The position numbers and the translations under genes were made by a program. DNA of 64,000 nt from Candidatus Hadarchaeum sp. (lineage in GTDB: Archaea; Hadarchaeota; Hadarchaeia; Hadarchaeales; Hadarchaeaceae). The notes under the pieces were generated by a model. It saw only the letters and a program-made list of their open reading frames with translations. It was not told where the DNA came from and did no database searches. Positions 14,940-31,234 of this stretch are shown in pieces (the stretch's first letter is position 1; each line of letters begins with the position of its first letter). Location of the stretch: assembly GCF_038871235.1 (NCBI RefSeq), contig NZ_JAVZIN010000002.1:32001-96000 (forward strand). Reading direction: 5' to 3'.

Positions 14940-14947
14940 TGTTACTG

Positions 14948-17990
<3,043 letters not shown>

Positions 17991-18001
17991 TCTGTAAACC
18001 C

Positions 18002-18030
18002 AGCTAGCACAGCTGCGACCTATGCATGGC
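18002..18030 (-). repeat. 5' arm of the pre-23S processing stem
   Basis: Inverted repeat of 14911-14939. Confidence 0.8.
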
Positions 18031-18097
18031 AATCATCTTGCGTTTTCCGCAATATGCCCTTAGCACGAGAGTTTCCTCGCGTGCCGCATTTATAATG

Positions 18098-18169
18098 TGG
18101 ACCCGGCGGGAATCGAACCCGCGACCTTCGGCTTGCAAAGCCGACGCTCTGCCTCTGAGCTACAGGCCC
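18098..18169 (-). tRNA. tRNA-Ala(UGC), CCA not encoded
   Basis: GGGCCUG/CGGGUCC acceptor with G3-U70, anticodon loop UUUGCAA, T-loop GUUCGAUUC; lies in the 16S-23S spacer. Confidence 0.97.
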
Positions 18170-18197
18170 CACGAGGGTTCGGTACTCAAAACTTCAA

Positions 18198-19675
<1,478 letters not shown>

Positions 19676-20117: not shown

Positions 20118-20345
20118 ATGAAAAGGTTGTCTGAGTTGAACGGCCTCAAGGTCTACAGCGATCGCGCGCGCTACGTGGGAACTGTAGAAGATGCTGTAAT
20201 CGATGATAAAGAGGGAGCGGTAGTTGGCCTTGTTTTTGGGCGAAAGGGAGATAAGGCCCTATCAATTCCCTACACGAGCATCATGGCAATTGGAGATATC
20301 ATTTTAATTCAGAGCAAAAAGGAAGAGGCAGTTGCGCCAACATGA
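20118..20345 (+). CDS. PRC-barrel domain protein
   Basis: LSELNGLKVYS..ARYVG.VED..ID, IPY..I.AIGDII; SD gaggtga before ATG 20118. Confidence 0.88.
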   Translation: MKRLSELNGLKVYSDRARYVGTVEDAVIDDKEGAVVGLVFGRKGDKALSIPYTSIMAIGDIILIQSKKEEAVAPT

Positions 20346-20929
20346 TTGAGGCTTTTCGGGGTAAAAAGCCCCGCATCCATAAGACGGCATTCGTTCATCC
20401 GTCCGCCACAATTATAGGTGATGTTGTTATCGGCAAGCGCGCAAGCGTTTGGCCTGGGGCGGTCATCAGGGCGGACTTCGCCAGCGTAAAGATTGGTAAC
20501 TACTCCAACGTTCAGGACAATGCGGTAATTCACTCCGGAGATGTGTACCGGAACGGGAAGCCTGAATATTTTCCCACCAAAATTGGCAACTATGTAATCA
20601 TCGGCCACCGCGCGCTAGTTCATGGCGCTACTATCGAAAACCAATGCATCATCGGTGCGGGCTCGGTTGTCTTTAACCGCGCGAGAGTCAGGAAAGGCGC
20701 AATGGTCGGGATTGGAGCAGTTGTTCTTAGAGATGTTGAAGTGCCACCGCGCACGGTTGTCGTAGGCATACCAGCTAGGCCCCTGCGGACGATAACAGAC
20801 GAAGAATTCAGGCAGATTAAAACCCAAGCCATTAACTACTCAAAACTAGCTGAAGAATATCTTAAAGCGGAATCAATGTCGTCTCAAGTCCATCGTAAGT
20901 GGGGTAGGCCTCGACTAAAGCGAAAGTGA
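20342..20929 (+). CDS. Gamma-class carbonic anhydrase family (hexapeptide repeat)
   Basis: IIGDV.IG, VIRAD, SNVQDNAVIH, IGH.A.VHG. Confidence 0.9.
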   Translation: MIEAFRGKKPRIHKTAFVHPSATIIGDVVIGKRASVWPGAVIRADFASVKIGNYSNVQDNAVIHSGDVYRNGKPEYFPTKIGNYVIIGHRALVHGATIENQCIIGAGSVVFNRARVRKGAMVGIGAVVLRDVEVPPRTVVVGIPARPLRTITDEEFRQIKTQAINYSKLAEEYLKAESMSSQVHRKWGRPRLKRK

Positions 20930-21947
20930 GGTTTTTTTCCATTTTAGCTAACTTTTCAGCCACGTACCAAGGCATTTCAATCCTTTTCTTGTGGTGGTCA
21001 ATCACTATTAATTCTGCAGGAATCCTGTAGTCTCGCATTAACCTTGACCGTACCGAAACCAATCTATCATCAGGCAAATTCAATATTACTCCCTTCACCA
21101 ATAGACCATCAGGCGTAACGACCTCATGTGGTCTAGCGATATTTTTTGCCTTGCGTTTGAGTCTGTTGCGCAACTGAACTGAATCCTTTAAAGCGCTGGG
21201 ACAATAGTGAATGTTTAATTTGGTATTCTTGGCGGCCCACTTAAGTACCCTGATTGCCACCTCTTCACTCCCTTTAGCTGCCATGGAGGTACTGGACTTT
21301 AGTGTGAACCCTTTCTTTTTAAGTTGATCTAAGTTAGTATCGGAAAACTCCAACTCATTCAAGTTCACAAATTTGCACTTTATCTTATCCAGCTCAGCTA
21401 AAAGCGATGTAATCTTTCGATATTCACCCGGGATGGCGGGTATTTCAACACCGGCACAAAGACATACGTCCAGCGCTAACTTAACCGGCTTTACCGACCA
21501 AGTATGGAACCTAATCTCATCCAAACCTTCGCGTTTAAGCTGGAGCAACTGCGACCTCGATAGCTCCCCGCAGCAGTACATATGCACATGGTGATTACGA
21601 CCGAATTTTTCTTTCATAAGTCGCAAGTAGAATAAAACGCGCTTAAATCTAAGAGAAGGGTCACCTCCGGTGATCCCGGTGCCCAAGGCCTCCATTGATC
21701 TCGCCTCATCCAAAATATCTTTAGTCGATTTAATCGGCCTTTCATTCGCATAAGCTAAATCCTTGCCCGCCCTTTTCTCAGACAACGGACAATAAAAGCA
21801 ACGGCGGCGGCAGAGCCCGGTTACAAAGAGCACCAACTTTGCTCCCTTTATGCAGAGTCTGCAGCCTTGAGGCATCTTTCCCAGAACTAAAGAATTTGCT
21901 GAAGTACGAATTATCCTGCGGTCGGCTCTATCTGTGGCCAATCTCAT
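20862..21947 (-). CDS. Archaeal radical SAM protein of unknown function
   Basis: GC..C..GAKLVLFVTGLCRRRCFYCPLS (CxxxCxxC), GITGGDP, NELE, HYC. Confidence 0.88.
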   Translation of the reverse strand: MRLATDRADRRIIRTSANSLVLGKMPQGCRLCIKGAKLVLFVTGLCRRRCFYCPLSEKRAGKDLAYANERPIKSTKDILDEARSMEALGTGITGGDPSLRFKRVLFYLRLMKEKFGRNHHVHMYCCGELSRSQLLQLKREGLDEIRFHTWSVKPVKLALDVCLCAGVEIPAIPGEYRKITSLLAELDKIKCKFVNLNELEFSDTNLDQLKKKGFTLKSSTSMAAKGSEEVAIRVLKWAAKNTKLNIHYCPSALKDSVQLRNRLKRKAKNIARPHEVVTPDGLLVKGVILNLPDDRLVSVRSRLMRDYRIPAELIVIDHHKKRIEMPWYVAEKLAKMEKNLTFALVEAYPTYDGLETTLIPL

Positions 21948-22362
21948 GACCCCAACGTCTTTTCTTGTCGGTGACTTCCTCTTTCCAAATGGGAACTTCC
22001 TTCTTTACCCTGTCCATTATCTTGGGAAGTGCGCTAAACACCTCGGCCCTTCTAACGCCAGCCACTAATACATATATTGCGTCATCACCTGGCGAGAGTT
22101 CATCGACAACATGGTGGATCATCACCCTCTTGATTCCGGGCCTTCTCTCAAAATCAGACGCTATTTCACCGAGCTTATCCACCGCGTCTTCTGCGCTTTC
22201 ATAATGCAAATATTTAACAGATCCCCCTTCTAACGACACTCTCCGAATTACGCCCACAAAACATCCAATAGCTCCAACCTCCTTGTCTAAGCTGGCCTTC
22301 ATCCGTTCAAGAAGGTCGTGGAAATTAACCTCTCCCTTTCGATGCACACCTACATCAGGCAA
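21928..22362 (-). CDS. moaE: Molybdopterin synthase catalytic subunit
   Basis: GAI.CFVGVIR, L.YE, VKKEVPIWKEE. Confidence 0.85.
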   Translation of the reverse strand: MPDVGVHRKGEVNFHDLLERMKASLDKEVGAIGCFVGVIRRVSLEGGSVKYLHYESAEDAVDKLGEIASDFERRPGIKRVMIHHVVDELSPGDDAIYVLVAGVRRAEVFSALPKIMDRVKKEVPIWKEEVTDKKRRWGHEIGHR

Positions 22363-22380
22363 AAGATATCACCGCTGAAT

Positions 22381-22665
22381 CTAACCACCCGAGACTGGAG
22401 GGAAGATTGCCACAACGTCTCCGTCTTTCAATTTAGTGTGCAAGCCTTGTAATAGGTTCACGCTCCTTCCATTCACGATGATGTTTACCGTCTCGCGCAA
22501 TTTTTCGCCATCAAAGAGTTGCCTACCCAATTTCTCACCAAACTTGGCTACGAGCGCCTTCAGCAGGGAGGAAACATCAGCGGTGCCCTCTATCACCGTT
22601 TTATCCGCACCTGCTGCCTCCCTGAAATTGGCAAAAAATTTTACCGTTACTGCCACAACGCTCAC
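22381..22665 (-). CDS. Ubiquitin-like sulfur carrier (MoaD/SAMP1)
   Basis: VKFFA.FRE, LKDGDVVAIFPPVSGG with C-terminal GG. Confidence 0.92.
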   Translation of the reverse strand: MSVVAVTVKFFANFREAAGADKTVIEGTADVSSLLKALVAKFGEKLGRQLFDGEKLRETVNIIVNGRSVNLLQGLHTKLKDGDVVAIFPPVSGG

Positions 22666-22750
22666 CGAAATCCTTCCAACTACCTAAAAAGATTAATTAC
22701 TCAACCTTTTTAAGCATGCGTAAGAGAGTAGTCAAGGAAGGGTTGATTTC

Positions 22751-23290
22751 GTGGCGGAGGTCAAAACCCAATTACAGAATATCGTGCTTTCCGTAACTTA
22801 CGAAGGCGTTGAATTTGACTTGGAGAAGTTGGCCAGATCACTTGAGGGGGCAAGATACGATCCGGAGGTATTTCCTGGAATCGCTTATAAGTCGGAGGAC
22901 CCACAGGCTTCCTTCTTAATTTTCGCCTCAGGAAAAATGAACTGTGTCGGCGCCAGAAGCATGGCAGATGCCAAGCTGGCCATAAAAAGGCTCACCAAGA
23001 AGCTTCAAAAGGCCGGAGTCAAGGTTAAAAGCGAGCCCAAAGTAAAAGTTCAGAACATCGTGGCCTCATTCGATTTCGGGCGCGAGTTCGACTTGGAGAA
23101 AATAGCCAGAACTTTTGAAAACACCGAATATGAACCTGAAGTTTTCCCTGGGCTGGTTTTCCGGTTAGACGAGCCAAAGGTAGTGGTTCTTCTCTTCGTC
23201 TCTGGAAAAGGGGTCTGCGCTGGTGCCAAAAGCATGGCGGATATCAAGGCGGCTGGGACAAAGATATTAAAACTTCTGAAACAGCACTAA
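22751..23290 (+). CDS. tbp: TATA-box-binding protein
   Basis: Two repeats NIV..Y.PEVFPG..F.SGK..C.GA.S. Confidence 0.95.
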   Translation: MAEVKTQLQNIVLSVTYEGVEFDLEKLARSLEGARYDPEVFPGIAYKSEDPQASFLIFASGKMNCVGARSMADAKLAIKRLTKKLQKAGVKVKSEPKVKVQNIVASFDFGREFDLEKIARTFENTEYEPEVFPGLVFRLDEPKVVVLLFVSGKGVCAGAKSMADIKAAGTKILKLLKQH

Positions 23291-23325: not shown

Positions 23326-23802
23326 CTACTTGGCCAACTTTGCCACAATATTTGCCACTCTGTATCCCAAATCTCGGCAGTTTTCAATACTTTCTTGGCT
23401 TGGGCTTCCGACAGCAACTGATCCGTAATGCATAAGATTTGATCTCCCCACTACAACCATGCCGTGAATAAGCATGGCATGGATTATGGACAACAGCGTG
23501 GTTTCGGACCCACCTGACCCTCCAAAGCTGGTAAAAGCAGCACCGACCTTTCCATCGAGCTTGCCGTAGTATTTAACCGACTCGTCAACGAAGGTTTTCA
23601 TCTTGGCCGACATCTGTCCGAAATGGCAGGGCGAACCGATAATTACTCCGTCAGCTTCTAAAAGCTCATCAACCTTGGCCTGATCGACCTTCCTAAGCAC
23701 CACCGCTACACCAGCGACCTTTTTAGCTCCCTCTGCCACTGCGTGAGCCATCTTTTCCGTGTTTCCAGATGCTGAGTCGTAAACGATTAAAACTTTGGGC
23801 AT
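23326..23802 (-). CDS. WrbA-like flavodoxin / NAD(P)H-dependent oxidoreductase
   Basis: YDSASGNTEKMA, GSP..FGQMS, GKVGAAFTS. Confidence 0.88.
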   Translation of the reverse strand: MPKVLIVYDSASGNTEKMAHAVAEGAKKVAGVAVVLRKVDQAKVDELLEADGVIIGSPCHFGQMSAKMKTFVDESVKYYGKLDGKVGAAFTSFGGSGGSETTLLSIIHAMLIHGMVVVGRSNLMHYGSVAVGSPSQESIENCRDLGYRVANIVAKLAK

Positions 23803-23933
23803 TGAATATCCTCATTCATTATTTGTCTTTTCATTTCAATTTAAATTATCTGTACTGGACTAATCCATTTCCAAGATAAATCCCTCAACGAGCCTAATTT
23901 TTAACTTGGGCGAAGATAGAGCTTTTCGATACT

Positions 23934-25067
23934 ATGACTTCCACTGTCATCGTCAGGTATGGAGAATTGGCCCTCAAAAGCGAGCCTGTAAGAAAAAGAT
24001 TTGAGAGGTGCCTAATAAACTCGATAAAACGATCGCTGCGAAATGTGACTTACACCATTAGAACCGAACGCGGTAGGATTTTCATTGATACTACCGCCAC
24101 GGCAAAAACGGTGAAAATTCTGTCTCAGCTTCCTGGCATAACCTCAATCAGCCCAGCTGTGAAGACGAAGGCAGACCTTGATGCCATTAAAGTCAAAGTA
24201 ACTACCTTAGCCAAAAAAATACTAAAGCCCGGTATGTCTTTCGCAGTCAGAACTACTAGAATCGGAGAACATGCCTTTTCCAGCAGAGATATAAATATTG
24301 CTATAGGATCATATGTCCTTTCCCTCCTGAATAATCTAAAAGTCGATCTCTCCCATCCTGACGTTGAAATATCGATTGAGATCCGAGATAACGATGCCTA
24401 CGTCTTTTCCAAAACGGTGCGGGGTGTTGGTGGATTGCCTGTTGGAACTCAAGGGAAAGTCGTGGCAATTTTGTCCGGGGATAAAAAAGACGCCATCGCG
24501 GCATTTATGATGCTAAAGAGAGGATGTATGGTAACACCACTAATTTTGGACGCATACGACGGGATAGGCAATCACCGGACAGGGCTTACGATTGCACAAG
24601 CGGAAAGATTGTCACTTTTTGGCGCTGCCACCTCCCTCTGGTTATTCCCATTTAAGGATCTACTAAATCAAGTACAGAAAAAAACGGACAGCAAATTTTC
24701 CTTTATTATTCGCAGGCGTTGTGAACTGAGGGCCGCTGAGCTGGTCGCAAGAAGAATCGCCGCCGAAGCCGTTGTAACGGGTGACGACGCTCAATCTATT
24801 GCGGGGATAATGCTGCCAAACCTACATACCATTGACGCGGCCTGTCAGCTGCCCGTGTTGAGACCACTTTCCGGTCTGGAGGTAAACGAAATCAAAAAAA
24901 TTGGCGTAAAAATAGGGCTAAAACTAGCTAAGGGTTCAAAATTGTCTCACCCCTTAAAAGGCGCCGTTATTAGCGCCGAAGAAATTCTTGAACAGGAAGG
25001 GATAATAAACGTTAGGAAAATTATTGAGGATGCCTCTGAAAAAATAAGAAAAATAGAGGTCCGGTGA
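23934..25067 (+). CDS. thiI: ThiI-like protein (NFLD + THUMP + degenerate PP-loop)
   Basis: VRYGELALKS, THUMP (SFAVR..R.G, VDL..PD), GGLPVGTQGK; PP-loop reads SGDKKD instead of SGGxDS. Confidence 0.8.
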   Translation: MTSTVIVRYGELALKSEPVRKRFERCLINSIKRSLRNVTYTIRTERGRIFIDTTATAKTVKILSQLPGITSISPAVKTKADLDAIKVKVTTLAKKILKPGMSFAVRTTRIGEHAFSSRDINIAIGSYVLSLLNNLKVDLSHPDVEISIEIRDNDAYVFSKTVRGVGGLPVGTQGKVVAILSGDKKDAIAAFMMLKRGCMVTPLILDAYDGIGNHRTGLTIAQAERLSLFGAATSLWLFPFKDLLNQVQKKTDSKFSFIIRRRCELRAAELVARRIAAEAVVTGDDAQSIAGIMLPNLHTIDAACQLPVLRPLSGLEVNEIKKIGVKIGLKLAKGSKLSHPLKGAVISAEEILEQEGIINVRKIIEDASEKIRKIEVR

Positions 25068-25071
25068 AAAC

Positions 25072-26346
25072 ATGGATTTGGTGATTAACCCGGCCACTTC
25101 GATCACTGGTGAGATCGAGGCCCTACCATCAAAATTTCATACGCAATTTTCCACCGCACTCGCGATCCTAACCGGAGGAAAGTGCACCATTGAATCCCCT
25201 TTAAGGGTTCGCGATACCCAAGTTATGCTAAAAGCAGCTGAATCCTTAGGGGCTGTTGTAAAGCGGTCCCAGGAAAAATGGACCATCTGGGGGGTAGACG
25301 GCAAAATCAAATCAGATAAAAACACCCTAGACGCGAAGAACTCCGGCACCTCGATCTGCCTGCTTACAGGGATCTCCACCATCTCGCCATCGACCATGGT
25401 CCTCCATGGTGACAGCCAATTGCGCTCAAGGCCCATGCCAACATTTCTTAAGGCGCTACGTTGCCTAGGCGCCGATGTCTATTCGACGAAACCAGATGAA
25501 AGTCCTCCTTTCATAGCTTTCGGCGGCGGGCTCAAGGGTGGCAAGGTTAAGCTTGATTTTCTTGAACCCAGATATCTGCCGCCCGTTCTAATCGCGGCAC
25601 CTTATGCCAAAAAAAAGGTAGAGTTAAAGGTCAAATCACCAACACTTGATCGGATCTCTGAACTAATGAAAATCGGACATGTCAAAGTGATCGAAAAAAA
25701 GAACACCGTCATTATCCCCAACCAAACCTACCGCGCCTTTACTTATCGAGTGCCGCATGAGATCTCTGGAACTGCGCCTTTTCTGGTCGCTGCCTGCCTA
25801 ACCGGTTCAAGCATTAAAATAAACCCTCTAGGACAAATGACCTATCGCGACAAGGAATTTCTCCAATGCTTAAAATCATTCGGAATCAATCCACAAATTT
25901 CAAAAAAATGCCTCAGTCTAGATGGAAAACACCGACTTAAAGCCACAAGGCTGAACCTCCGTTCTACTCCCGAATTGCTGCCCTTAGTCGCAGTAATTGC
26001 CTGTATGGCAAGAGGGAAAACTTTGATTTACGATGCCGCGGGCGCTAGGACCATGAAGTCAGACCGGATTTCAGCGATCGCCAACGAACTGAGACGAATG
26101 AAAGCCAAGGTGCTCGAGAGAAATGATGGATTGATCCTCCAAGGACCAGTGACATTGCGCGGCTGCGAAGTTGATGGTCACAACGACTATGCCATCACCG
26201 CGGCTCTCGTGGTGGCAGCGCTTGTATCAAATGGAATTACGACAATCAAAAACGGTGCCGACTCGCTTATCTCGAGTTATTCAAGATTCATATCCACCTT
26301 CCAAGCGATGGGCGCCGAGATAAGCTACCGGCACCCAACAGTTTGA
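25072..26346 (+). CDS. aroA: EPSP-synthase-fold (AroA-like) protein with degenerate active site
   Basis: PSK, NSGT, GD..LRSRPM, SDRI, GHND framework; many catalytic residues substituted. Confidence 0.78.
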   Translation: MDLVINPATSITGEIEALPSKFHTQFSTALAILTGGKCTIESPLRVRDTQVMLKAAESLGAVVKRSQEKWTIWGVDGKIKSDKNTLDAKNSGTSICLLTGISTISPSTMVLHGDSQLRSRPMPTFLKALRCLGADVYSTKPDESPPFIAFGGGLKGGKVKLDFLEPRYLPPVLIAAPYAKKKVELKVKSPTLDRISELMKIGHVKVIEKKNTVIIPNQTYRAFTYRVPHEISGTAPFLVAACLTGSSIKINPLGQMTYRDKEFLQCLKSFGINPQISKKCLSLDGKHRLKATRLNLRSTPELLPLVAVIACMARGKTLIYDAAGARTMKSDRISAIANELRRMKAKVLERNDGLILQGPVTLRGCEVDGHNDYAITAALVVAALVSNGITTIKNGADSLISSYSRFISTFQAMGAEISYRHPTV

Positions 26347-26416
26347 TTAAGAAAGTTAATATTTCTGAAACATCATGGTTAATTGACCTATTTAGTTTAT
26401 CCCGAATTGTGGTCAC

Positions 26417-27025
26417 TTGAGGGGGCAGCTGAGTATAGAGTTCTTGGCGGTCATGGCCGGTTTCTTGATCATGGTAGCTACTGTTACTCTGCCGACGTAT
26501 CTTCAGGCAAACTTCGACGCGGAAAAATTGAGCAAAATCTCTGAAGCAAAAGTGGCTGCCAACGAGCTGGCAGCTGGACTGAACCATCTGTATGCAGTGG
26601 GGCCAGGTTCACGTCTGACCGTCGAATACTCGCTTCCGGCCGGGATCTTGACCATATACTTGGGAGGCTACGATAATCTTGATGTCGATGGGAGACTTAC
26701 AGCGGATGAAACAGTTCCGATAAATGGCCGTGCAGACATCCAAATTCTGATGGACTTTAACGGCGATGGGTTGTGGGACAACATGCGCGATTCCATAATC
26801 ACAGTGGATACGGTACTGCCCAGTCGGTGGAATGAAGACGGTACCGACCGGGGAGAAGACTGGGTTAAGGAGAATTGTCTACACGTGGAAGAAAATGGCT
26901 TGAAAGTCGGTCCTGAGTACGGGACTCTTTCTAACAGAACTTTTCACCGAACCACGCTAATTTACTGCTACGATCCGAGCAGCCGATACCCGCGAAGGAT
27001 CGTGGTCTTAGATGAAATCAGATAG
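26417..27025 (+). CDS. Class III signal peptide pilin-like protein
   Basis: RG/QLSIEF + hydrophobic helix; A..LA..LN.LYA.GPGS. Confidence 0.8.
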   Translation: MRGQLSIEFLAVMAGFLIMVATVTLPTYLQANFDAEKLSKISEAKVAANELAAGLNHLYAVGPGSRLTVEYSLPAGILTIYLGGYDNLDVDGRLTADETVPINGRADIQILMDFNGDGLWDNMRDSIITVDTVLPSRWNEDGTDRGEDWVKENCLHVEENGLKVGPEYGTLSNRTFHRTTLIYCYDPSSRYPRRIVVLDEIR

Positions 27026-27509
27026 ACATTATTCAAAAGGCCAATCGGCGGTTGAATATCTGACCATACTCTCCGCGGCGCTGGCCCTACTGACCTCAGT
27101 AACTCTCACCCAATCCATCAATCCATCCAAAAATGCTGCGGATCATTCGGCATATCTAATGCAGGCAAAAGCGACAGCCAGTTCCATCGCTGGTGCCATA
27201 GATGCTGTTTATGCGAACGGGGCCGGTGCATCCAAAAGTTTAATCGTGAAACTGGGCTGCCCCTGGACGGCCCAAATGGACAACTCGAAAAATGTCTTTA
27301 GGGTAATCTTCTGGACCATGTCGGGCGCAGAAAATTCGGAAGTCAATCTTCAGTACAAAATAAAGAAACAACACTTGCTTACAACAATCCCTCCGGGAAC
27401 CTACACGGTCATCGTGACTTGGTCTGAAAACAAAAATTTTCCAGAAACTATGCAGCTGGATGTGGTCGGCGGCGGGAAAATTTACATCTATCTTAACCCA
27501 CAGGGGTGA
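27012..27509 (+). CDS. Class III signal peptide pilin-like protein
   Basis: KG/QSAVEY + hydrophobic helix; IAGAIDAVYANG.G. Confidence 0.8.
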   Translation: MKSDRHYSKGQSAVEYLTILSAALALLTSVTLTQSINPSKNAADHSAYLMQAKATASSIAGAIDAVYANGAGASKSLIVKLGCPWTAQMDNSKNVFRVIFWTMSGAENSEVNLQYKIKKQHLLTTIPPGTYTVIVTWSENKNFPETMQLDVVGGGKIYIYLNPQG

Positions 27510-27940
27510 TTAATCTGGCCATTGCAGAAAAAAGAGGATTCTTCTCAATAGACGCGCTTTTGGCGCTAAGTCTGTTGGTGATAGTCGCTACCTCGCTCAT
27601 AACCTTATCTGAAGGAAGAAGAAAATCCGCAGAAGCGATTGAGATCCACCTAGAAGCAAAGATGATCGGCGACAGACTTGCCGCAGCGATGAACTCTGTA
27701 TATGTGAATGGGCCCAACATCAGTCTAAGTCTCAAGTTGCCGGAGAACATTGGACCCTATCCATACAGAGTATTCTCAGACAACTCAGTTGGCTTGTTAA
27801 CTGTTGAAAGCAGTGTTGAAGTAGTAGAGATAAATACGGTCTGCAAAAACTTCAAAAATTTTGTGCTTGAACGGGAAAATCTGACCAAAAAAATTCAGAT
27901 ATTCTGGGAGGGTTCCCAGCTATGTATTGCGGGGAGATAG
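27506..27940 (+). CDS. Minor pilin-like protein
   Basis: KRG/FFSID + hydrophobic helix; LAAAMNSVYVNG. Confidence 0.75.
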   Translation: MINLAIAEKRGFFSIDALLALSLLVIVATSLITLSEGRRKSAEAIEIHLEAKMIGDRLAAAMNSVYVNGPNISLSLKLPENIGPYPYRVFSDNSVGLLTVESSVEVVEINTVCKNFKNFVLERENLTKKIQIFWEGSQLCIAGR

Positions 27941-28353
27941 CAGGCCAATCCAGCACAGAATTTTTAATCCTGGTCGCAGGCATAATTTTAACCGCAACAT
28001 CATTTTTTTGTTGGAGTTTACAAAATACCGAACTCACTACAATAATTCAAGCGGCTCATGATGGAGCTGAAAATGCGCTTGCAACCATTGAAATCAACTA
28101 TGGGTGTTCTGCATATGTCGAATGCTTTGGACTCAACGATAATCGAATAGAGATATCCATCGTTATCCTAGCTGCTCCGCCGGAAAATATCAACCAATTT
28201 GATTTCACGGAAAAAGTTGTTAAAAAAATGGTCAAAGAAAGCGTCTTTAATTATATCCAAAGGGCTCTGAGCAGTCTTTCGACAAACAATCCGATTGAAA
28301 CAGCATTTTGCCCCTATGATGTCTCCATCCGCATAAGAAAGGGAATCGAATGA
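27922..28353 (+). CDS. Minor pilin-like protein
   Basis: G/QSSTEF + hydrophobic helix. Confidence 0.7.
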   Translation: MYCGEIAGQSSTEFLILVAGIILTATSFFCWSLQNTELTTIIQAAHDGAENALATIEINYGCSAYVECFGLNDNRIEISIVILAAPPENINQFDFTEKVVKKMVKESVFNYIQRALSSLSTNNPIETAFCPYDVSIRIRKGIE

Positions 28354-29318
28354 ACGAGCATGGACAGATTTTTACCTTAGATATGTTCTTCGCCCTCGTC
28401 TTAACCGCGCTAATAATTAGTAGTTCCGGCCTAGCATTGGAACAGGTGAGGAAACAAACTAATGATTATTTTTTAAGATATTCTCTCGAACAAACGGCAA
28501 ATGATGCTGCTGACGTGCTTGTTAAAACTGGCGGGACCCCGGATGATTGGCCAAAGCAGCCCAATTCCATAGAAGCTGTTGGCTTATGCCAAACTGATCA
28601 ACACGGTTTTCCAATACCGAACAGCCTTTCGATACAAAAGCTAGAGAACCTAAGGCAACTTTGTAAAAATGAAATCTGGGAAAGCTATCCCGCTGCCTCT
28701 CAGGCAATAAAGGCCCTTTTTAATCGCTCTGAAAAATTTGAACTCATTTTGATCGACGAAACTACTAACGAAAATCTATGGCCCCCAGTTTACCCTCGAT
28801 GGAATATCAAACAATCGTCGGGAGTTCAAGACTCATCAGAGGTTGTCGTGGTAAAGCGCCTAGTTGCTACAAATGTGATAACCGAAAACTTACTTGAAAA
28901 TCTTATCCACATCAGCAAACCACCACGTTACCAAATCTACTTTAACGTTGACCCTGGAGAACTAAACACTCGTGACTGGTACATCGTTTTAACAAGGTCG
29001 CTGCCACCGCCACCAATACAACCGGAAGTGAGGATTTGGGTGAACCGAAACCCGAGTGACGGTGATGGAGATCGGGACTTCAAATCCCCACCGCATGATT
29101 CGCCCTTCCGAATAAGATGCGATGGAGTGGATTACCCAGATGGTTCTGACTACGCCTTTCCAGTGCCGCTGCACGAAGGGCAGAACTTCATCTGGATTAG
29201 AATTTCAGGTAAAAATGCCCCGGTTAACGTTTCAATAGTTTCGCTACCGAGGGGTTCGCCATCAAAGTTAGTTGAACTTCCCCCAGTGGCAACCTTGGTT
29301 GTAAAACTATGGAGGTAG
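28350..29318 (+). CDS. Large pilin-like/adhesin protein
   Basis: G/QIFTLD + helix, ADVLVKT.G.P.DW, C-terminal LVVKLW. Confidence 0.75.
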   Translation: MNEHGQIFTLDMFFALVLTALIISSSGLALEQVRKQTNDYFLRYSLEQTANDAADVLVKTGGTPDDWPKQPNSIEAVGLCQTDQHGFPIPNSLSIQKLENLRQLCKNEIWESYPAASQAIKALFNRSEKFELILIDETTNENLWPPVYPRWNIKQSSGVQDSSEVVVVKRLVATNVITENLLENLIHISKPPRYQIYFNVDPGELNTRDWYIVLTRSLPPPPIQPEVRIWVNRNPSDGDGDRDFKSPPHDSPFRIRCDGVDYPDGSDYAFPVPLHEGQNFIWIRISGKNAPVNVSIVSLPRGSPSKLVELPPVATLVVKLWR

Positions 29319-29321
29319 AAG

Positions 29322-30527
29322 ATGTCCTCACTTTATGATGAAAAAGGTTTTATATTCAGCCTAGATGCAATTCTGGCCATCGCGGTTCTGATCACGGCTT
29401 TGCTTGGCGTGGCGAGTTTCATCGGACCCCAACCAATTCATGATCAACAGGGGTATCTTAGACTTGAAAGATACGCTAACGATGCTCTTGAAGTTTTACA
29501 GCTAACGGGAACAATGGACGAAATAATAAACTATGTTAGGCAAGGATACCCAGAAAATGCCGAATACTTGGCCGAAACGCAGCTTAGAAAAATTTTGCCT
29601 GCCGAAATTCAGTTCAGGCTGATAATCGGCGACGAAAACAATCCGCGTCTGGATAACGTTTTTTCAACGCACGGAAAGAATGAAGAATGGTTGGTCGCTT
29701 TTCAAAATGTAAATGAGATGGCCAAGGCTATAGGAATAACCACGCTACCTAGGAAAAGGATCAAGGTGCTCGCTTGGGTTGACAATAATGACGAAGAATT
29801 TATTTTCCAACTGCTTGTAAACGCTGGCATCGACCTCAAAAAAGTCAACACCATTACAGAATTCTGGAACGAAGTTGATACCGCCATCGCTAAATGGCAG
29901 CCGGGTCATCCCTATTATGACGCAATTTTCATTCCAGATGCTGAAATTGATCTCGCTCCAAACGGATTGACTTCAAAAATCATTGATCTAGTGATTTATC
30001 AAAAGTGCGAGGGTAGGATCGTTGTCGGTGGAAGTACCCTCTATCACAACTGTCAAGTTGAAGAAACTGATGGTTATCTCTGGGAATCGCTCGGGATTCT
30101 TTGGAACGATTCACCTCAAGAAATATCTGGACCGCCGCTGGACAACATGCGTATACTCAACTCTACCAGTTTCGTGACCCAAGCCTACAAAAATGGAGAT
30201 AATATTGAATACAATTCGAATTATGCCCAATATGTTTACGCGCCTATCGATGCTTCGTGGGTAGTCGCGCGATGGGAAGATGTTCCAAACATCATCGCTA
30301 ACCCTATAAGTGGAATAATTATCCGTCCTAGTGGCTTCACCCATACCCGTATGGGCCTATTGCCCCAGCCGGCGGTGCTGTTTAACATGCGCTTTGCCCA
30401 AAGTGCTACGGACAATGAGAACCCGATGGGTACTGCTGACTGGATAACTCTAGTAAAACTTGCACTTGGTTACGAAGAAGTTCCAGAGCTAATCAGCCTC
30501 TATGTTTGGAGGGGCCCGCCTGTGTGA
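29322..30527 (+). CDS. Large pilin-like/adhesin protein
   Basis: KG/FIFSLDA + helix, ANDALEVL...G, C-terminal LYVW. Confidence 0.75.
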   Translation: MSSLYDEKGFIFSLDAILAIAVLITALLGVASFIGPQPIHDQQGYLRLERYANDALEVLQLTGTMDEIINYVRQGYPENAEYLAETQLRKILPAEIQFRLIIGDENNPRLDNVFSTHGKNEEWLVAFQNVNEMAKAIGITTLPRKRIKVLAWVDNNDEEFIFQLLVNAGIDLKKVNTITEFWNEVDTAIAKWQPGHPYYDAIFIPDAEIDLAPNGLTSKIIDLVIYQKCEGRIVVGGSTLYHNCQVEETDGYLWESLGILWNDSPQEISGPPLDNMRILNSTSFVTQAYKNGDNIEYNSNYAQYVYAPIDASWVVARWEDVPNIIANPISGIIIRPSGFTHTRMGLLPQPAVLFNMRFAQSATDNENPMGTADWITLVKLALGYEEVPELISLYVWRGPPV

Positions 30528-31234
30528 TGACGATGAAAACGGATTATGGACAAAAGGGGGTCGCTCTGAGCAGTTTGGCGCTGCTGCTGATGCTGCCGGC
30601 TCTGCTGTTAGCCGCTTCCAGCTTGAAAATAATTGAAATTGGTGGGGAAACCAACTCCATCCAGATCTTGGCTGATAAAGTGTACTATACTGGAAAAGAA
30701 ATCTCAGAAACAATAAAACTAATGCAGAAGAATAGAGTTCCAATTAATGACATCAGCTTACAGGTGCTCGCTGAAAAATATCGTGCGGCGACTGGGTTAA
30801 TTATATGTATTACCTCCAATCAAGTTTATCCTCTCTGGATCCACGTACAACCCACCGGCGTTAATCATTATGCTGGAAGCAAATACTGTGTTGTTGAAAA
30901 AATCTCCGCCAATAGATGGAAATATTCGTTTGAAGACTCAGATGCAAATGCCGGCGAAACTGTCGATTTTGACTATAACGAGCCAGAATTGCTCATCGAA
31001 AAGATCGATGAAAATTTGAAAATAACCGTGTTGGCCTACAACAGCCCTCATTTCTCGGACGTTTATTATTCAAAAGAACTATTGTGGTCTGAAGTTGGAG
31101 GCATCGGTGAAAGACATGTGGGAGAATCTACGGAAATAGAAGAAAATTGTTTTGGGTCATTTATTTTGATCTCCATTGAAATTAGAGACCCTAATGATTT
31201 GGTGAGATGCTTCGAAAATGTCCTGCTTACGTGA
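30527..31234 (+). CDS. Pilin-like protein with acidic putative Ca-binding segment
   Basis: KG/VALSSLALLL helix; FEDSD..DFDYNE; start uncertain (30506/30527/30533). Confidence 0.65.
   Translation: MTMKTDYGQKGVALSSLALLLMLPALLLAASSLKIIEIGGETNSIQILADKVYYTGKEISETIKLMQKNRVPINDISLQVLAEKYRAATGLIICITSNQVYPLWIHVQPTGVNHYAGSKYCVVEKISANRWKYSFEDSDANAGETVDFDYNEPELLIEKIDENLKITVLAYNSPHFSDVYYSKELLWSEVGGIGERHVGESTEIEENCFGSFILISIEIRDPNDLVRCFENVLLT

Follow-up and report, generated by a model that had tools for sequence, protein, structure and literature searches.

A remodelled EPSP-synthase paralogue and a motif-depleted ThiI at one conserved locus of Hadarchaeales: evidence for two separate evolutionary events

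Introduction

What maintains two adjacent, uninterrupted genes whose products both seem to lack the catalytic residues of the enzymes they resemble? This question is raised by a 64,000-nucleotide stretch of DNA from Candidatus Hadarchaeum sp. (contig NZ_JAVZIN010000002.1, positions 32,001 to 96,000), referred to here as the window, which belongs to an archaeal genome of 1.2 Mb that is 94.75% complete. The two genes, named here ThiI* and AroA*, are open reading frames (ORFs) without internal stops, the second of which is related to 5-enolpyruvylshikimate-3-phosphate (EPSP) synthase:

23934..25067, + strand: ThiI*, a full-length ThiI/TtuI orthologue of 377 aa with a PPase domain predicted to be dead (ORF, Pfam, TIGR00342, alignments)
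25068..25071, + strand: the 4-nt spacer between the ThiI* stop (TGA) and the AroA* start (ATG)
25072..26346, + strand: AroA*, a Hadarchaeales-specific paralogue with the EPSP-synthase fold, 424 aa, with a remodelled cleft and a net charge of +23 (ORF, Pfam, TIGR01356, alignments)

A sequence-only reading of this locus had interpreted the pair as a repurposed unit, in which the active sites of two coupled genes were lost in a targeted manner, and which might be cotranscribed with a pilin operon. Its starting point, namely two full-length, stop-free ORFs (377 and 424 aa) located 4 nt apart with a pilin-like ORF 70 nt downstream, agrees with the ORF coordinates; the proposed coupling, as described below, does not withstand comparison with related genomes. 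We consider it very probable that the locus records an ancient neofunctionalisation of AroA* and a recent, repeated relaxation of ThiI catalysis, which followed a stand-alone paralogue. That these were two separate events in one conserved operon of the TATA-binding protein (TBP) gene, ThiI and AroA*, with the functional roles of the products discussed later, appears to us the best explanation on balance, held with less assurance than the evolutionary description itself.

Results

AroA* matches the Pfam family EPSP_synthase (PF00275) in full length, over residues 7-407, with 225.3 bits, and reaches 241.4 bits against TIGR01356, under the equivalog cutoff of 287.25; existing sources annotate it as EPSP synthase or hypothetical protein, and near-identical proteins carry the labels Candidatus Hadarchaeum or Hadesarchaea. 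A canonical aroA present on another contig of the same genome scores 458 bits, over the cutoff, and bears all canonical motifs. The search for intact paralogues proposed in the sequence-only reading led to this gene and to PP221, a PP-loop protein described further below. Substitutions in AroA* were read from a HMMER alignment to a solved AroA (PDB 3tr1) and from family alignments including the genome's own canonical paralogue; residue numbers and residue roles are those of E. coli AroA. The changes comprise S23F, R27F, R100C, SSQ to EPR at 169-171, D313E, K340M, E341K, H385Y and R386A, with K22, G96 (mostly, across the family), R124, D343 and R344 kept. All substitutions listed in the sequence-only reading were thus confirmed, as was its statement that K22, G96, R124 and R344 persist, except that K411S carries no weight: this change is uninformative because the archaeal canonical AroA proteins compared do not share K411, which is V in the aroA of this very genome.

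The replacements follow a pattern that is common to the family. Contacts of shikimate-3-phosphate are represented by F (S23), F (R27), EPR (169-171) and M (K340), and the loop bearing S197/Y200 is deleted, family-wide. Of the D313/E341 acid/base pair, the first residue is E in 26 and the second K in 28 of the 29 AroA* sequences, where canonical proteins have D and E in 61/61; similarly, position 340 is M in 25/29, against K in 61/61. At the site of phosphoenolpyruvate (PEP)/phosphate binding, K22, R124 and R344 are kept and R386 is A, with R124 lost in three of the four sequences from family f4. The family is recognised by the motifs PSK[FL]xTQ, E[PA]RYLP (where the canonical proteins have SSQF), PELLP (containing D313E), ARxMKSDR and xDYA (H385Y mostly, and R386A). 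Four canonical basic columns were lost and eight new conserved ones gained, including Q171R and E341K. Two of the motifs are placed in the window as follows:

25129..25149, + strand: SKFHTQF (canonical SKSYTHR); K22 kept, hydrophobic residues in place of S23 and R27
26053..26067, + strand: MKSDR, family-defining (canonical KE[ST]DR); K340M and E341K, with D343 and R344 kept

Because the switched positions are nearly invariant in the family, as opposed to D, K and E in 61/61 canonical proteins, the cleft has been rebuilt rather than emptied. The term 'gutted', used in the sequence-only reading, is therefore inappropriate for a family which has conserved cleft residues of its own. AroA* is a neofunctionalised protein, not a dead one, although its residues indicate that it would have lost EPSP synthase activity.

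The distribution of AroA* was established by searching a profile of 25 AroA* sequences against 66 Hadarchaeota genomes. Scores were bimodal, with 414-651 bits for the AroA* type versus at most 367 for canonical aroA. The AroA*-type gene was found in 59 of the 66 genomes (55 full-length or nearly so, and 4 clear fragments), and nearly all of these hold canonical aroA too. Seven genomes are devoid of it (G009, G019, G030, G040, G041, G042 and G048). True loss is the case in G009; it was considered and rejected for G019, G030 and G040, where the essential TBP gene next to the locus is absent as well, or the contig breaks off. G042 and G048 are 75% and 78% complete, and G041 is the sole genome from another order. 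In the latter genome (91% complete) a ThiI-like gene is present (264 bits to the A2 profile) and no AroA of either type was detected at E<=1e-40; its shikimate pathway may be missing. Among 1.84 billion representative proteins searched with HMMER, AroA*-type motifs were seen only in the top cluster and its fragments, about 18 of the 150 matches listed, and all listed matches from 357 bits down are canonical AroA. For AroA*, the ESM Atlas returned EPSP-synthase-family clusters only.

In a quick IQ-TREE analysis of 29 AroA* and 44 canonical sequences, AroA* forms one side of a branch with SH-like approximate likelihood ratio test support of 100 and a stem of about 1 substitution per site. Its inner branching follows taxonomic families, which argues for vertical inheritance since before the order radiated. 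The ratio of nonsynonymous to synonymous substitution rates (dN/dS) of AroA* is 0.09 for G000-G001, the only pair with unsaturated synonymous sites (G000 being the genome of the window), which indicates strong purifying selection. Intact orthologous ORFs of ThiI* and AroA* span the order at 35-92% identity, and the in-frame stops flagged in three AroA* matches of an earlier search were not seen in the profile search. The view that the pair is intact, selected and catalytically non-canonical is borne out by the recurrence of the changes in orthologues across the order and by dN/dS values of 0.09 for AroA* and 0.24 for ThiI*, a pattern that exceeds chance.

Remodelling of AroA* was accompanied by a marked shift of its charge. 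Net charge was calculated as K+R-D-E, and 986 non-overlapping ORFs of at least 150 aa served as a proxy of the proteome of the window's genome. The median AroA* net charge is +20 and the median pI 9.8, with 25/29 members basic; canonical AroA has -3 and +1 in two Hadarchaeal proteins, and a median of -0.5 among 120 canonical representatives. With +23, AroA* of the window is within the 17 most basic of the 986 ORFs (1.7%; proteome median +2), and ThiI*, with +21, is close behind it. In this ranking AroA* is found beside proteins that, judging by their N-termini, are putatively the ribosomal proteins L2, L3 and L4, a TiaS-like protein and one resembling a tRNA synthetase. The surplus of positive charge lies mainly in residues ~143-355. 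A change of this kind would be expected when an enzyme acting on a small molecule turns into a nucleic-acid binder. In one f4 genome (G027; L037) both ThiI* (pI 5.6) and AroA* (pI 4.8) are acidic, unlike all other pairs, either because the two partners shifted in parallel or because the whole proteome is affected.

ThiI* has the NFLD, THUMP and PPase domains in this order (PF22025, PF02926, PF02568), and scores 234.1 bits against TIGR00342, under the cutoff of 264.5. Its motifs were read from HMMER alignments to solved ThiI structures (2c5s, 4kr6) and from family alignments:

23946..24407, + strand: NFLD (residues 5-73) and THUMP (residues 79-158), the tRNA-binding half of ThiI* (Pfam ThiI_fer 59.9 bits, THUMP 64.5 bits)
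24444..24917, + strand: PPase-like domain, with degenerate PP-loop, CxxC and dimer/ATP loop
24474-24491, + strand: degenerate PP-loop SGDKKD (residues 181-186)
24702-24713, + strand: lost CxxC, reading FIIR (residues 257-260)
from 24777, + strand: degenerate dimer-interface/ATP loop, TGDDAQ... (from residue 282)

These alignments substantiate the three losses reported previously. The PP-loop SGGxDS, which serves ATP binding and adenylation, became SGDKKD; the Fe-S CxxC became FIIR, with no third Cys at the aligned position; and the ATP/dimer-interface loop TGExxGQxxSQT became TGDDAQSIAGIM. ThiI* is thus predicted to have lost its catalytic activity.

Related genomes present a different picture of the same gene. 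The orthologues of G011 (355 bits) and G025 (305 bits) are over the equivalog cutoff and have perfect SGGIDS, CxxC+C and TGE..GQVASQT. An intact ThiI adjoins AroA* in genus g5 (G011, G020) and in G018 of g12, and is apart from it in family f2; a degenerate ThiI* adjoins AroA* in the other f1 genera and in f4, and is apart from it in f5; in G026 (f3) the state of the motifs is intermediate. Since all four combinations of state and adjacency occur, loss of the ThiI active site is not coupled to AroA*. Targeted loss in two coupled genes, the central claim of the sequence-only reading, is contradicted by this pattern: AroA* was remodelled once, before the radiation, and ThiI later and repeatedly, regardless of adjacency. 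On the AroA* tree g12 and g5 are the first branches within f1, and the genera with dead ThiI* group together in one supported clade, which fits one loss of the ThiI motifs in crown f1 and separate losses in f4, f5 and, incipiently, g12. No flanking genes are shared by f2 ThiI and f5 ThiI*, so their positional orthology is not supported.

Conservation within ThiI-like proteins is unevenly distributed. Among 18 such proteins from adjacent pairs, invariant residues belong to the NFLD/THUMP half or to the linker (R8 to G174), with the addition of K195-R196-G197; the PPase-like domain has one, P311. For G000-G001, the dN/dS of 0.24 for the whole ThiI* divides into 0.18 for the N-terminal and 0.28 for the C-terminal half. 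The invariant residues and the lower dN/dS of NFLD/THUMP indicate that the tRNA-binding half is what selection keeps in ThiI*.

PP221 is a stand-alone ThiI-type PP-loop protein of 221 aa, with the motifs SGGIDS, CxxC and TGEVLGQKASQT and a later Cys pair. Its gene was examined at two loci:

L004:1492-2157: PP221 on contig 6 of the window's genome (G000)
L064:12619-13284: PP221 of G009

A domain scan of PP221 found no NFLD/THUMP, DUF814 or other RNA-binding domain, and no full-length ThiI above the cutoff was found in the window's genome. The PP221 family is large (944 matches at E<=1e-15) and annotated only as hypothetical or 'ThiI'. In both G000 and G009 the gene adjoins that of a DUF6775 putative metallopeptidase, and no RNA-binding partner was found in either neighbourhood. 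The presence of PP221 was tallied for 37 genomes whose ThiI-like sequence could be evaluated (G003, which has a fragment only, was left out):

degenerate ThiI*: PP221 present in 24 genomes, not found in 3 (G017, G024, G021)
intact ThiI: PP221 present in 2 genomes (G011, G029), not found in 7
intermediate ThiI: 1 genome (G026), with a weak PP221 match only

Three genomes beyond this tally (G060, G061 and G064) also combine degenerate ThiI* with PP221. Within genus g12, ThiI is intact in G018, which is without PP221, and in early erosion (SHGIDG; TGESLEQxAGQT), with CxxC still present, in G058 and G059, which have it. Two PP221 copies are present in G058, on contigs C10 and C21 (307 and 293 bits). 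Decay of ThiI thus seems to track the presence of a stand-alone, intact PP221, an association that is suggestive and not statistical, as the lineages are few and related.

The gene order TBP-[ThiI]-AroA* is kept in all five families of Hadarchaeales: AroA* is directly 3' of TBP in f2 and f5 (gap of 0-40 nt), and ThiI lies between the two in f1, f4 and probably f3. Junctions of ThiI and AroA* in relatives are 4-bp overlaps or short gaps. Among the 65 genomes of the order, 59 have both a ThiI-like gene and AroA*, six have neither and none has a single one (the ThiI-like gene of G003 is a contig-edge fragment only). The two are adjacent in 48 of the 59, apart in 9 and not assignable in the other 2; eight of the nine with separated genes have TBP directly upstream of AroA*, and in G039 the genes are on separate short contigs. 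The adjacency, the lack of singletons and the 4-nt spacer or 4-bp overlaps establish the pair as a conserved one, in agreement with the sequence-only reading. ThiI* and AroA* are probably cotranscribed; a GAGGT Shine-Dalgarno-like element is present ~12 nt 5' of the AroA* ATG, within the 3' end of ThiI*. The following features surround them:

22751..23290, + strand: TBP gene, the most conserved neighbour of ThiI*/AroA*
23803..23933, + strand: upstream intergenic region with TATA-like AATTTTTAA ~30 nt 5' of the ThiI* ATG, a candidate promoter of the pair
26347..26416, + strand: 70-nt gap to the first pilin-like gene, with GAAAGTTAATATTT, resembling a B-recognition element (BRE) and TATA box, a candidate separate promoter

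At least seven consecutive pilin-like genes follow at 26417-31234 (+ strand); their N-termini resemble class-III signal peptides, and those scanned match nothing in Pfam or NCBIfam. Such a cluster is located 3' of AroA* in at least 11 of the 21 loci examined; f2, f5 and several f1 genera have none at that position. Cotranscription of the pair with the pilin operon, as proposed in the sequence-only reading, finds no support beyond proximity, since the 70-nt gap holds a BRE/TATA-like element and the linkage occurs in about half of the loci.

On the upstream side, a gene for a WrbA/flavodoxin-like protein (23326-23802, - strand) separates TBP from ThiI* in the genus of the window only; elsewhere TBP abuts ThiI or AroA*. 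The block at 20342-23290, syntenic across the order, encodes a gamma-carbonic-anhydrase-like left-handed beta-helix (LbH) protein, a radical-SAM protein (best NCBIfam match 26 bits, no assignable type), MoaE, a MoaD of the SAMP1 type (79.8 bits, over the cutoff) and TBP. A full archaeal rRNA operon (16S, spacer tRNA and 23S; 14943-19675, - strand) lies 4 kb upstream of the pair. Two TBP genes are present in G003, a genome of the same genus, on contigs C135 and C76 (77% and 66% identical to the TBP of the window), reflecting either duplication or contamination (4%).

Discussion

The explanation that we favour involves two histories which met in one operon. AroA* would have arisen once, before Hadarchaeales radiated, from a duplicate of EPSP synthase, with the canonical aroA kept for the shikimate pathway. 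It would then have lost every shikimate-3-phosphate contact together with the catalytic Glu, fixed a new cleft (K22, R124, R344 and D343 kept; D313E, K340M, E341K and Q171R fixed) and gained ~20 net positive charges. The ligand that the protein may now bind, and on which it might act, would be large and anionic, with RNA/tRNA or a nucleotide as the likeliest candidates; we put forward such a ligand tentatively, as a serious possibility. ThiI*, on the other hand, would have been an ordinary gene of a tRNA U8 sulfurtransferase, which later lost its PP-loop, Fe-S cysteines and ATP/dimer loop where PP221 was present, and may have been kept for its NFLD/THUMP tRNA-binding half. Its candidate partner would be PP221, in a heterodimer acting in trans, AroA*, or both.

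Several observations weigh against this explanation. The argument from charge is an indirect one, and the four f4 AroA* proteins are neutral or acidic (pI 4.8-6.2) and mostly without R124, hence not every member of the family has a basic surface. All dN/dS values rest on one unsaturated pair, G000-G001, and the loss of activity in AroA* and ThiI* is predicted from residues. The association of ThiI decay with PP221 relies on few independent lineages, roughly crown f1, g12, f4 and f5 versus f2, G018 and g5. Moreover, G011 and G029 hold both intact ThiI and PP221; no PP221 was found beside the degenerate ThiI* of G017 and G024 (g11) and of G021; and G009 (92% complete) keeps PP221 with no ThiI-like gene or AroA* anywhere, its entire upstream block through TBP being assembled, so ThiI* is not a strict requirement for PP221. 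Conservation is poor in the PPase-like domain of ThiI*, the expected interface of a heterodimer, and this domain is shortened in g10, g11 and f5. Perfect co-occurrence of ThiI-like genes and AroA* provides weak evidence that the two are functionally linked: an assembly gap or a single deletion removes neighbouring genes at once, which largely explains it. A search for fusions among longer AroA*-containing proteins (E<=1e-30) found none, which is weak evidence as well.

Among the alternatives, the one that survives best, albeit still doubtful, is a split 4-thiouridine (s4U) synthetase, in which ThiI* heterodimerises with PP221 and presents U8 in trans, AroA* being functionally unrelated and merely located in the same operon. 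In the ThiI-RNA structure, as reported, NFLD/THUMP of one subunit grips the acceptor stem and sets U8 into the active site of the other, in a dimer held by the PPase domains (PMC4041423; also PMC9957541). Since ThiI works in trans across such a dimer, the pairing of ThiI* with PP221 would leave just one active site complete. The absence of a detectable RNA-binding domain from PP221, the inverse pattern of intact ThiI and PP221 (including the contrast within g12) and the constraint still acting on the dead domain of ThiI* (dN/dS 0.28) all agree with this proposal. Dead paralogues as partners are common in tRNA-modifying enzymes (ADAT2/ADAT3, Trm6/Trm61). It is difficult to reconcile, however, with PP221 devoid of a ThiI-like gene in G009, with ThiI* devoid of a detected PP221 in g11, and with a PPase-like domain in which a single residue is invariant and which several lineages have in truncated form.

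The same observations in G009 and g11, and the weak conservation of the PPase-like domain, favour a tie between ThiI* and AroA* over a strictly split enzyme. An obligate complex of the two, with the THUMP protein bringing tRNA to an EPT (enolpyruvyl transferase)-fold protein or to a PEP/phosphate-sensing partner, would account for their adjacency in 48/59 genomes with 4-nt spacers or 4-bp overlaps, for the lack of either gene alone (59 both, 6 neither), for the loss of both at the otherwise intact locus of G009, which keeps PP221, for the persistence of ThiI* and AroA* in g11 with no PP221 found, and for their place among the most basic proteins of the proteome (+21 and +23). Nevertheless, we find it unlikely in its obligate form. 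The genes are apart in f2 and f5 (9 genomes), where AroA* comes straight after TBP; co-loss of neighbours can be one deletion, and no fusion was found. Furthermore, the ThiI adjoining AroA* is fully intact in g5 and G018, and the pairing therefore predates, and does not require, the 'pseudo' state.

A more specific version, which we regard as rather improbable, would make AroA* the catalytic or RNA-end-binding part of a THUMP-guided tRNA system. ThiI, live or dead, would dock on the acceptor stem/CCA end and position AroA*, whose rebuilt, strongly basic EPT cleft would act on tRNA, for example by PEP-dependent enolpyruvyl transfer to a ribose hydroxyl, similar to the chemistry of NikO but on RNA, or by recognition of a phosphate end. 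The RNA ligand, the split enzyme and the two-protein module are not mutually exclusive.

It is very improbable that AroA* remained a PEP-dependent enolpyruvyl transferase and switched to another small acceptor, for instance a nucleotide sugar destined for glycans of the pilin cluster, in a manner similar to MurA or NikO. In its favour, K22, R124, D343 and R344 persist, and the change of D313 to E is conservative; in MurA the proton donor differs from the Glu of EPSP synthase; the pilin-like cluster is downstream in at least 11/21 loci; and NikO is a precedent, with the 3'-OH of UMP as the acceptor (PMC6801904). Yet R386 is lost and E341 became Lys in 28/29 sequences, the pilin cluster is not downstream in f2, f5 and several f1 genera even though linkage to TBP is universal, and a charge of +20 would be unexpected for an enzyme of sugar nucleotides.

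Two further possibilities have almost no probability left. Missing catalytic residues would suit simple decay, i.e. recent pseudogenes free of stops by chance, but this is excluded by dN/dS of 0.09 and 0.24 and by the order-wide profile search, with its intact ORFs at 35-92% identity and family-specific AroA* motifs. A second, divergent EPSP synthase isozyme, as implied by the full-length PF00275 match and by the annotation in some sources, was rejected on the TIGR01356 score below the equivalog cutoff, the replacement of all shikimate-3-phosphate contacts with deletion of the S197/Y200 loop, and Lys in place of the catalytic E341, canonical aroA being present besides.

To judge by its residues, AroA* cannot be an EPSP synthase, despite its routine annotation as such or as hypothetical. 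It would rather be a clean example from nature of how the fold of an essential metabolic enzyme is rebuilt and then retained for as long as an archaeal order has existed. Both its charge and its place in the operon suggest RNA, which, if true, would extend the EPT fold to a new class of substrates; and a THUMP-guided AroA* system, if true, would provide the first RNA-acting protein derived from EPSP synthase, and possibly a new tRNA modification. The ThiI series displays all stages in related genomes, from intact through incipient (SHGIDG) to fully dead but retained, and supplies an explanation, open to testing, of such hitherto unexplained 'ThiI-like' proteins as PH1313, and of the way in which PP-loop proteins without THUMP might reach tRNA. 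Caution is also advisable in annotation, as domain matches in metagenome-assembled genomes are a poor guide to shikimate-pathway or s4U capacity.

Comparison with known systems

AroA* shares with EPSP synthase (PF00275, TIGR01356, EC 2.5.1.19) the full-length, two-domain EPT fold (130 bits to PDB 3tr1). It differs in its score below the cutoff, in the replacement of S23, R27, R100, S169-Q171, the S197/Y200 loop, K340, E341, H385 and R386, in its charge of +20, and in forming a separate long-stem clan that coexists with canonical aroA. Among other enzymes of the fold, the proton donor of MurA is not the Glu used by EPSP synthase. MurA and NikO use acceptors other than shikimate-3-phosphate; AroA* is nearer to AroA (241 bits) than to MurA (87-98 bits), lacks a Cys loop of the MurA type, and no longer has R386 or E341. 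NikO is described as catalysing enolpyruvyl transfer to the 3'-OH of UMP (PMC6801904).

The RNA 3'-phosphate cyclase family (RtcA/Rcl1), whose fold is related to the EPT fold, provides a precedent for action on RNA; AroA* descends from AroA instead, and has no match to an RNA 3'-phosphate cyclase family in Pfam at E<=0.01. Rcl1 is described as a cyclase-family protein of an rRNA-processing complex (PMC4150785). Among the top-ranked results of our literature search we found no description of a Hadarchaeal AroA paralogue or of the ThiI*/PP221 pattern.

ThiI* retains the NFLD-THUMP-PPase architecture of the archaeal [4Fe-4S] class of ThiI/TtuI (TIGR00342), and is orthologous to the intact ThiI of relatives at the same locus. 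Unlike these enzymes, in which the CXXC + C ligands of the Fe-S cluster are reported to be essential (PMC9825150), it has lost the PP-loop, CxxC+C and the TGE...SQT loop, and falls under the cutoff. A similar combination of THUMP with no PP-loop occurs in PH1313 of Pyrococcus horikoshii (PDB 1VBK), the N-terminal half of which aligns at 123 bits. PH1313, one of multiple Pyrococcus ThiI homologues, is characterised in PMC9957541 as 'ThiI-like', with conserved residues missing and activity not shown there; it has only 307 aa, and ThiI* traces back, within Hadarchaeales, to the single full-length ThiI.

PP221 resembles THUMP-less ThiI+DUF814 proteins in having an intact ThiI-type PP-loop domain without THUMP. 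According to Burroughs & Aravind 2014 (PMC4075521), the near-exclusive distribution of the latter proteins and THUMP-ThiI was used to argue for their functional equivalence. PP221 differs in having no DUF814, and in Hadarchaeales THUMP-ThiI has been kept in a dead form rather than lost.

The pair as a whole has the properties of pseudoenzymes and neofunctionalised paralogues: catalytic residues lost, purifying selection, and live counterparts (canonical aroA and PP221) in the genome. ADAT3, Trm6 and METTL14 are dead paralogues kept as RNA-binding subunits beside live ones. ThiI* and PP221 differ from them, being not simple full-length paralogous subunits, and theirs is a partnership only proposed.

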